In this document: piece by piece, positions 46,380 to 47,973 of the stretch
How the letters are laid out: each line of letters begins with the position of its first letter
Numbering within the stretch: the first letter of the stretch is position 1
DNA from: Octopus vulgaris
Lineage: Eukaryota
Assembly (NCBI GenBank): GCA_951406725.2
Contig: OX597829.1
Location: 22,568,001-22,632,000 of the forward strand
Length of the DNA stretch: 64,000 nucleotides
Reading direction: 5' to 3'
Position numbers and translations under genes: made by a program
Notes under the pieces: model-generated
What the model was told of the DNA's origin: nothing
The model's input: the letters and a program-made list of their open reading frames with translations, nothing else
The model's database searches: none

Positions 46380-47973
46380 CTAATTTCATGATAAGTCTGT
46401 TCACCAAAGTTCCAACTGGTGAAGCACTATTGGTGATTCAAGAAAAACTAGTGACAGACACCCATCTAAAAGAACACACTAGTATACCAATAAGAAACTT
46501 GATGGAAATGTTGACCTGTGTAGAAACTACTTACTTCAGTATGGACACTGATATATATTGACAAGAGGAGGGTTTGGCTATGGGTTCACCTTTATCACCG
46601 GTAATAGCCAATATATACATAGAATACTTTGAGAATTTGGCTTTAGGATCAACACCACTAAAACCATCCCTATGGCTGTGATATGTTGATGACACCTTCA
46701 TATTTTGGCCCCACCAGGAAGATGTCCAAGTGTTGTTAAATCATGTGAACTCAATAAAGCCATCCATACAGTTCACAATGGAAAAAGAAAAAGACAATCA
46801 GCTAGCATTCCTGGCTGTATTAATATATTTCTTTACTACCCACAAGGGGCTAAACACAGAAGGGACAAACAAGGACAGACAAACGGATTAAGTCGATTAT
46901 ATCGACCCCAGTGCGTAACTGGTACTTAACTTATCGACCCCGAAAGGATGAAAGTGGATTCAGGACATCTGTATACCACAAGCTGACCTTCACTGGACGA
47001 AACCTCATCTTCAATTCCCACCATCCATACAGTGTAAAGAGAGGGATTGCTCAGTGCCTAAAACATCAAGCAAAGAATATAAGTAGTGATCGTGATACAC
47101 ACCACTAAAAAATGATCAAGCTTAGTAATAATCTATTTAGCAAAAGCTACTCCAAAAGCATACTCTCCACTCCAATTATGAAGAAAAGAGAGGATGAAAT
47201 CGATAAACTGTCCACAGTCTGCCTACACTATGTGAAAGGCCTCTCCGAAAAGATACAAAAGATATGTGACCCATATGACATCAGAACAGTATTCAAAAGT
47301 AATACAACACTTTGCAAATATCTCCTTCGAGTATAACCACCAATAGAAGAGAATATGACCAAGAACTGCGTGTACTCCATCCTATGCAGCTGTGGTAGAT
47401 TATACAAAGGCGAAACATGCTGTCTCCTCAAAATAAGGGCAGAGGTACATCGCAAAGCTGTAACACATGGAGATATTGATAAATCAGTTATAGCTGATCA
47501 TATATGGAAAAAAGGAGACCACCTTCCCTTGTGGGATAAAGTTAAAATAATAGACAGAGAACACTACTGGAAAATACGAAAACTAAAAGAAGCAGCACAT
47601 ATGCTAGGACACAACAACCTCCTAAGCAGATGGAGTGCAGATATGAGCAGCATATGGGAATCGGTATTAAGGAAGGATAAGAGAATATTAGATTTATAAG
47701 CCCTAAAATTCACACCATAATTGCCCATGGGCATATGGTGTAGTGGTTAAGAGTGCAGGCTACTAACCACAAGATATGAGTTTGATTCCAGGTAGTGAAC
47801 ATCGAAAAATACTTTAGGAATGAGAACCCAGGTTCGAAATTTCCCAAGATACCTGATGAAGGCTGCAGGGTATATCAGCCGAAACGTTGTGTTAACAACA
47901 GACAAGATGAAGACAAATATCTATCAAATGTAAATAATGTACATAATTCGTCATCTCTTAAATATAGAACTGT
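46380..47973 (+). mobile_element. Decayed 5'-truncated Penelope-like element (RT + GIY-YIG endonuclease + 3' terminal repeat)
   Basis: SLFTKVP; QEEGLAMGSPLSPVIANIY; YVDDTF; IQFTMEKE..LAFL; FNSHHPYSVKRG; VYSILCSCGRLYKGET (GIY-YIG); SVIADH..RKLKEA. Contains stops and a nested SINE B fragment (46826-46953, minus). Confidence 0.92.
47848..47893 (+). ncRNA. Minimal type I hammerhead in the Penelope terminal repeat (family HH-A)
   Basis: GATAC-CTGATGA-a-GGCTG cagggtatat CAGCC-GAA-ACGT-T-GTGTT; palindromic AACGTT stem III. Confidence 0.8.

Follow-up and report, generated by a model that had tools for sequence, protein, structure and literature searches.

A 64,000-nt stretch of Octopus vulgaris contig OX597829.1 (herein referred to as the window) contains a decayed Penelope-like element (PLE), and the segment 47722-47974 is, judged by its sequence organization, the 3' terminal repeat (pLTR) of this element. 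In this copy, the pLTR consists of a palindrome, a tRNA-Arg(ACG)-derived head, the remnant of an (AAT)n linker, and the opening ~155 nt of the PLE ORF, including a predicted hammerhead ribozyme (Table 1). The observations are best explained by a once-active PLE whose terminal repeat includes the head with its A and B boxes, probably as an internal Pol III-type promoter, and whose ORF-less copies (solo units) probably arose by internal priming of reverse transcription. A palindrome, a tRNA-like head, and a minimal hammerhead after the ORF stop had been noted in an earlier, sequence-only reading of this DNA, and all three motifs were found where that reading had placed them. The order of the full unit is head, (AAT)n linker, ATG, predicted hammerhead within the first codons, ORF for reverse transcriptase (RT) and endonuclease (EN), 22-nt spacer, and the next head. 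Head, hammerhead, and ORF were identified from alignment to the tRNAs of the same genome, from motif anatomy, and from protein homologues.

Table 1. Features of the PLE copy and of related ORF-less units in the window.
Feature	Position	Strand	Remark
PLE ORF, RT and GIY-YIG-type, decayed	46389..47699	+	5'-truncated at 46389; stop at 47699
Piece (129 bp) of an unrelated abundant SINE	46826-46954	-	interrupts the RT region of the window PLE
Spacer, 22 nt, from ORF stop to head	47700..47721	+	in ORF-linked copies only
Short palindrome TGCCCATGGGCA across the 5' edge of the head	47722..47733	+	center of many head-to-head fold-back junctions
tRNA-Arg(ACG)-derived head	47729..47798	+	majority head aligned to the genome's own tRNAs
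A box TGGTGTAGTGG	47736-47746	+	
B box GTTTGATTCC, CpG-decayed	47780-47789	+	GTTCGATTCC in sister copies at 15201 and 20159
(AAT/AAC)n linker remnant and 5' leader	47799..47819	+	linker deleted in the window copy
pLTR body, ~155 nt from the start of the PLE ORF	47820..47974	+	ATG at 47820; frameshifted in the window copy
pLTR body ends, two sites ~34 nt apart (PLE "tail")	~47940 and ~47974	+	
Predicted minimal type I hammerhead	47848..47893	+	fits the descriptor of PMC4209133
ORF-less head-to-head pair	14291..15451	.	left linker with ~520-bp insertion; right copy with 3-nt cut-site deletion
ORF-less head-to-head pair	19926..20423	.	right copy begins at the B box
ORF-less head-to-head pair	26431..27016	.	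right copy begins at the 5' end of the head
ORF-less single unit, B-box half of the head only	38487..40124	-	~1.06-kb LINE 3' fragment within the (AAT)n linker

Thirty loci were selected on the 5' part of the ORF. Since the body directly precedes the ORF in 10 of these loci, in direct orientation and continuous with it, the pLTR body represents the beginning of the ORF; these 10 loci show the partial tandem with a direct upstream repeat that is a hallmark of PLE terminal repeats, and one of them (L165) has the head as well. The hammerhead lies within the first 25 codons, counted from the ATG at the equivalent of window position 47820, and the natural L165 frame aligns through the hammerhead codons with an 847-aa relative (39% over 198 aa). 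The majority ORF frame is open for 788-798 aa and contains YVDD and YKGET motifs. The natural 569-aa frame of another locus, L058, has an RVT_1 match (E 2.7e-6, below the cut-off) and matches 1,459 RT-EN proteins, with PF01541 in 3 of the 120 listed. The relatives P0001-P0005 show 55-68% identity. Hallmarks of EN+ PLEs were found both in the coding part, a single ORF with RT followed by a GIY-YIG-type endonuclease, and in the insertions, which include inverted 5' copies and a tail in the 30-40-nt range (3' ends 34 nt apart). Pfam gave no GIY-YIG match for the 120-aa end of the window copy, and no motif of a Zn-finger linker, which the Penelope/Poseidon clade lacks between RT and EN, is visible in the L058 frame. 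The family looks inactive, because none of the 150 candidates scored, out of 4,227, has an intact ORF (the longest frame is 569 aa) and copies differ by ~5-6% from the majority outside CpG sites.

Two loci, L152 and L153, are internally deleted derivatives in which the 5' part of the ORF is joined to head and body; L153 retains both pLTR bodies and is a candidate for a true non-autonomous PLE. Additionally, the N-termini of three relatives (P0003, P0029, and P0120, proteins only) resemble translated hammerheads, in different frames. These sequences suggest that an overlap of ribozyme and start codon may be general in the clade of this PLE.

Head and ribozyme were both missed by Rfam, ARAGORN, and folding scores and were therefore examined directly. 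ARAGORN detected no tRNA in the window unit and did not fold the majority head as a tRNA; Rfam gave neither a tRNA nor a hammerhead at the pLTR site, and none among the matches listed for the window (150 of 335). Alignment of the head to tRNAs, as proposed with the sequence-only reading, was performed with a family-majority head built from 39 ORF-linked copies and 11 tRNAs of the same genome, an incomplete set without His, Gly, Leu, and true Ser, among others. The best of these 11 was the 73-nt tRNA-Arg(ACG) (52 identities, z=8.7), followed by Arg-TCG (z 7.3), Ala (6.5), and Arg-TCT (6.2). The consensus A box was matched in 60 of 78 copies and the consensus B box in 38 of 76, B-box losses being mostly due to CpG decay. 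tRNA-Arg is also the source of the octopus SINEs OR1 and OR2. In contig C2 (211.89-211.91 Mb), ~20 tRNA-Arg(ACG)-like sequences are densely clustered in tandem.

For a selection blind to the head, the RT region alone was used as query and yielded 29 other loci. All 19 copies that reach the ORF stop continue into the head (6 of the 19 with a partial head), and the remaining 10 loci end before the stop. The head is therefore integral to the PLE, and a chance SINE insertion in the window copy is ruled out. ORF-bearing copies without the head, named by the sequence-only reading as evidence against its proposal, were looked for, and the head was present, at least in part, in all 19 ORF-linked copies. 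That reading had also held that the pLTR captured a Pol III promoter; capture of a tRNA-derived A/B-box head stands, and its promoter function keeps the probable status given above. The ORF-head junction is bridged also in contigs labeled as two other species. The data gave no hint of a free donor SINE bearing this head, the body following heads (19 of 49) as often as spacer-bearing copies (6 of 17). The three other SINE heads in the window have only generic box similarity to the PLE head.

Sister units were found in all four regions of the window from which a ~250-bp ORF-less unit had been reported (body matches, E 1e-37 to 1e-66). The description needed amendment: three of the four are head-to-head inverted pairs and the fourth is one minus-strand unit. 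In the pair 19926-20423, the 3-nt deletion at the predicted cut site is present in the left copy and absent from the right one. The (AAT)n linker had been taken for a trait of ORF-less copies, which proved incorrect, since the linker, as (AAT/AAC)n, is present in ORF-linked copies too; from the window copy it has been lost. Several other elements were observed in the window. The LINE 3' fragment in the linker of the fourth unit (38896-39955, minus strand) carries zf-RVT (PF13966) and is presumably R4/Dong-like. A ~520-bp non-coding element (14463-14980), by eye the same as one in the linkers of L021, L027, L170, and L173, is probably a microsatellite-targeting retroposon. An unrelated ~236-bp repeat pair (32729-32964 and 41495-41721) has a minimal-hammerhead-like motif at 32784 and 41549 (CUGAUGA/CUGACGA...GAAAC) and is likely the pLTR of a different PLE family.

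Abundance was estimated in the 2.8-Gb genome assembly (227 contigs) from sixty 10-kb stretches taken at fixed steps along contigs C1-C9. Counting solo vs ORF-linked copies, another check suggested earlier, gave 13 ORF-less loci among the 15 in the sample; one of the others has only the last ~25 nt of the ORF and one has a longer ORF piece. Extrapolation gives ~70,000 loci in the genome (95% interval, 39,000-115,000), which automatic annotation could mislabel as SINEs or tRNA pseudogenes. Genome-wide exact matches, a measure biased to younger copies, numbered 1,230 for the ORF end, 1,276 for the spacer, 4,434 for the 5' end of the head, and 10,508 for the body, with 0-4 in reversed-sequence controls. 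Thus, the counts are flat from ORF end to spacer and step up ~3.5-fold precisely at the head start, 10-25 nt past the spacer. Among 100 head matches listed, 10 have the spacer vs ~45 expected from the spacer match rate (P~1e-14); these matches and the match rates suggest ~4.5 times as many heads as spacer-bearing copies. Absolute figures derived in this way (18,600 and 2,800) lie below the sampled estimate and are skewed toward young copies.

The majority of copies in the genome are ORF-less units that begin at the head and stop ~120 or ~154 nt after the ATG. Among truncated head alignments, 15 of 30 begin at model positions 220-239, the head start being 230. ORF-less units carry the insertion hallmarks of PLEs and are often inverted head to head: the 100 body matches listed include 17 head-to-head, 0 tail-to-tail, and 2 direct pairs. 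The direct tandem repeats that define non-LTR retrozymes are therefore rare among these matches, and no tandem array was found in the 15 randomly sampled loci. Fold-back junctions at the palindrome gave 1,721 strand hits at ~1,000 places (58 distinct by eye within 100 matches listed), vs 815 native junctions. Five copies start at the head without an exact fold-back (L136, L140, L145, L165, and the window copy at 26684).

Like SINE2 elements, solo units have a tRNA-derived head containing A and B boxes, have their 5' ends there, and contain no internal T4 terminator. No fixed solo-specific variant was found in 119 columns compared between 19 solos and 42 ORF-linked copies, the latter picked by similarity; the best column (P=0.003 uncorrected) fails correction for 119 tests. 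The variant N7=A is present in 8 of 18 solos vs 3 of 38 ORF-linked copies and occurs also in upstream pLTRs. The proposal that solos form a separate non-autonomous SINE family was accordingly not upheld: no fixed variant of their own was seen in the columns compared, they share the linker, and internal priming would account for the extent of the unit.

Transcription from a type 2 Pol III promoter starts a few bases ahead of the tRNA-like +1 and gives a sharp 5' boundary there. Because most short copies begin at the head, the PLE was likely transcribed from it by Pol III, and the transcription-start region is inferred to be the palindrome. No T4 run is present in the majority sense strand (2,367-nt ORF, spacer, head, and body), where 2.4-4.1 would be expected (P 0.057 with synonymous shuffling, 0.015 with shuffled bases, and 0.008 under neutral Phe usage). 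Four ORF or LINE fragments of the window, used as controls, contain 1-2 such runs each. As a sign of Pol III use, this absence is suggestive only. In RNA-seq data of a related species (~6% of two runs), no specific transcript was found; both strands were covered about equally, with no pile-ups of starts or ends, a pattern that fits passive read-through or unstranded libraries. Against a Pol III reading, a Pol III mRNA of 2.5 kb would be uncapped and long for this polymerase. The known PLE promoters are Pol II-type. Palindrome fold-back alone could also make part of the step at the head.

The predicted hammerhead is composed of CTGATGA (47853-47859), stem II (47861-47880), and GAAAC-GTT, with a predicted cut after 47888. 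Its helix I has 5 bp, followed by the core CUGAUGA, a bulged A, a helix II of 5-6 bp, and GAAAC-GUU, which includes the palindromic AACGUU. The sequence features of minimal type I hammerheads (core, helices I and II, NUH site, and palindromic helix III) were found in both the window copy and the family majority. Core and helices are intact in 18 of 89 copies spanning the hammerhead, and the sole common non-CpG core substitution is at the free N7 position. Core conservation is barely higher than that of the flanks (0.967 vs 0.949). No covariation was found in the hammerhead within the family, z-scores for folding of the single strand did not reach significance (-0.2 to -1.4), and co-folding of two copies gave no clean dimeric hammerhead. 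Published minimal hammerheads of PLEs are described as having low activity in vitro and no cleavage ends in RNA-seq.

A 3-nt deletion over or next to the predicted scissile bond was found in 24 of the 89 copies; other deletions occur in at most 2 of 89 each. It is equally frequent on both N7 backgrounds and is discordant between paired copies at 6 of 10 fetched loci with two scorable copies and in 2 of 3 window pairs. Both observations oppose its reading as the marker of a single subfamily, as does the failure of any variant to show linkage once the many columns tested are taken into account (best P=0.033). By context, the deletion is present in 16 of 38 ORF-linked 3' pLTRs, 8 of 38 ORF-less copies (P=0.08), and 0 of 7 upstream pLTRs (P=0.04), hand-counted figures that are suggestive only. 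The recurrent deletion may be a cleavage scar of the predicted hammerhead, which would provide genomic evidence that a PLE minimal hammerhead cuts in vivo. An old deletion variant spread by template switching between RNAs could give the same within-locus pattern. No pile-up of 5' ends at the cut site was found (3 starts in model bin 90-99; each other bin between 10 and 129 holds 1-8).

According to the preferred explanation, transcription would begin a few bases before the tRNA-like +1 of the upstream pLTR. The PLE protein would bind the first ~150 nt of the ORF and prime reverse transcription internally there. Priming at the first of these sites would copy only the stretch from the head to +154 and produce the tens of thousands of SINE-like solos, and priming in the downstream repeat would produce the ORF-bearing, mostly 5'-truncated copies. 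A cDNA ending at the palindrome could fold back into a head-to-head pair. Only part of the transcripts would be cut by the hammerhead, acting as a dimer; the recurrent 3-nt deletion would result when RT crosses the cut with the help of a 2-nt GU microhomology. For the PLE of Anolis named PAc (Poseidon), the hammerhead is described as overlapping the start codon, and RT primes internally in vitro at two nearby early-ORF sites, with 172 nt of the ORF required and cleavage dispensable (PMC11167929). An internal promoter has also been reported for PLEs. The cleavage steps are weakened by the lack of a 5'-end pile-up at the cut and by PAc insertion without need of cleavage (PMC11167929). Since a transcript of the upstream pLTR primed at the first site would equal the exact solo unit, a separate SINE master is unnecessary, and an independent SINE is less likely than the PLE's own head-started transcript.

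The head could instead be a passenger, left by a tRNA-Arg SINE with an (AAT)n tail that landed just upstream of the PLE start, the PLE itself using a nearby Pol II promoter; the 5' boundary would then mark a Pol II start site or palindrome fold-back. Head plus microsatellite indeed resembles a simple SINE in full, fold-back junctions equal or exceed native ones in number, RNA-seq showed no Pol III transcript, and solo pLTRs and inverted 5' copies are described as ordinary for PLEs. We nevertheless regard this alternative as unlikely, as the five copies listed above start at the head without exact fold-back, the majority A and B boxes are intact (the A box in 60 of 78 copies), the unit lacks a T4 run, and no free donor SINE was traced (19/49 vs 6/17).

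Still more improbable is that solos are a self-standing SINE/retrozyme family, transcribed by Pol III from solo masters, self-cleaving, and mobilized in trans by the PLE. Such a family would have precedents in Sm-alpha and animal retrozymes and would agree with three traits of the solos: their excess over ORF-linked copies (13 of 15 random loci), their starts at the head, and their higher share of N7=A. However, N7=A is not confined to solos and fails the correction, and no site is fixed in them; retrozyme-typical direct tandems are rare (2 vs 17 head-to-head among the matches listed); and the unit ends differ from the cut site. By analogy to the 172 nt of ORF needed by PAc, solos that end at the priming site may also lack part of the binding signal. 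The boldest version of the preferred explanation is that an autonomous PLE was transcribed whole (~2.8 kb) by Pol III from its acquired tRNA-Arg promoter, had a coding strand purged of T4 runs, shed SINE-like units by internal priming, and recorded in vivo cleavage as the 3-nt scar. We consider this combination possible but doubtful; if true, a PLE would have been caught giving rise to an Sm-alpha-like SINE.

In published descriptions, Penelope/Poseidon PLEs (Cervera and de la Pena, 2014, PMC4209133; PMC11167929; Craig et al., 2021, PMC8557442) share with the octopus element an RT followed by a C-terminal EN and a pLTR that overlaps the start of the ORF. Also shared are strong 5' truncation, 5' copies in inverted orientation, a tail of 30-40 nt on one end, and a minimal type I hammerhead that has a bulged base, a helix II of great length, and a palindrome in helix III. 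In contrast to these descriptions, the octopus pLTR adds a tRNA head and a trinucleotide linker, and most copies are bounded at the head. The Schistosoma repeats Sm-alpha and Sj-alpha also combine a tRNA-related Pol III promoter with a following hammerhead in a short high-copy repeat (PMC6765202, PMC2770079); in these descriptions, they are tandem repeats of a SINE-like kind whose hammerheads are canonical, and no autonomous partner is named. Unlike Sm-alpha as described, the octopus head belongs to a protein-coding element, the hammerhead is minimal, and the copies are inverted rather than tandem. The sequence-only reading knew of no such design in cephalopods; the pairing of Pol III promoter and hammerhead is already known from Sm-alpha, and what was not found in the literature consulted is a tRNA-headed autonomous PLE.

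TRIMp3 elements (Cassandra, Helenus, and Ajax; Kojima, 2024, PMC10886601) likewise have the Pol III promoter of a small-RNA gene in their terminal repeat, probably by SINE insertion. They are non-autonomous LTR elements, and their autonomous partners are argued to use Pol II and to lack a shared LTR (PMC10886601), whereas in octopus the autonomous element itself carries the head. Animal non-LTR retrozymes (10.64898/2026.07.22.740005, PMC7229834) are also ORF-less hammerhead units related to pLTRs, many of them monomers; they are defined by direct tandem repeats, and their description (10.64898/2026.07.22.740005) mentions no tRNA head and did not sample cephalopods. Among cephalopod repeats, the octopus SINEs OK, OR1, and OR2 have tRNA-derived heads (Ohshima and Okada, 1994, via PMC4758252, PMC4824008). 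OR1 and OR2 are termed CORE-SINEs, and the body of the PLE unit is PLE ORF, a distinction drawn from published descriptions. In an octopus repeat annotation from 2026 (PMC13282606), 190 Penelope-like consensus families are listed, and the word "hammerhead" is absent from its supplement. The literature consulted, including PMC8967140, gave no PLE with a tRNA head; Repbase, Dfam, and SINEBase lie outside this scope and may hold the family. A tRNA head in an autonomous PLE was thus not found described there, and its separate parts have precedents in PLE hammerheads, Sm-alpha, and TRIMp3.

The octopus family provides a worked example of how a Penelope element can give rise to a repeat with a Pol III promoter and a hammerhead, in a genome that still contains the autonomous parent. 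Should the whole element be driven by the head, this PLE would challenge the usual division of retroelements into autonomous ones transcribed by Pol II and non-autonomous ones transcribed by Pol III.
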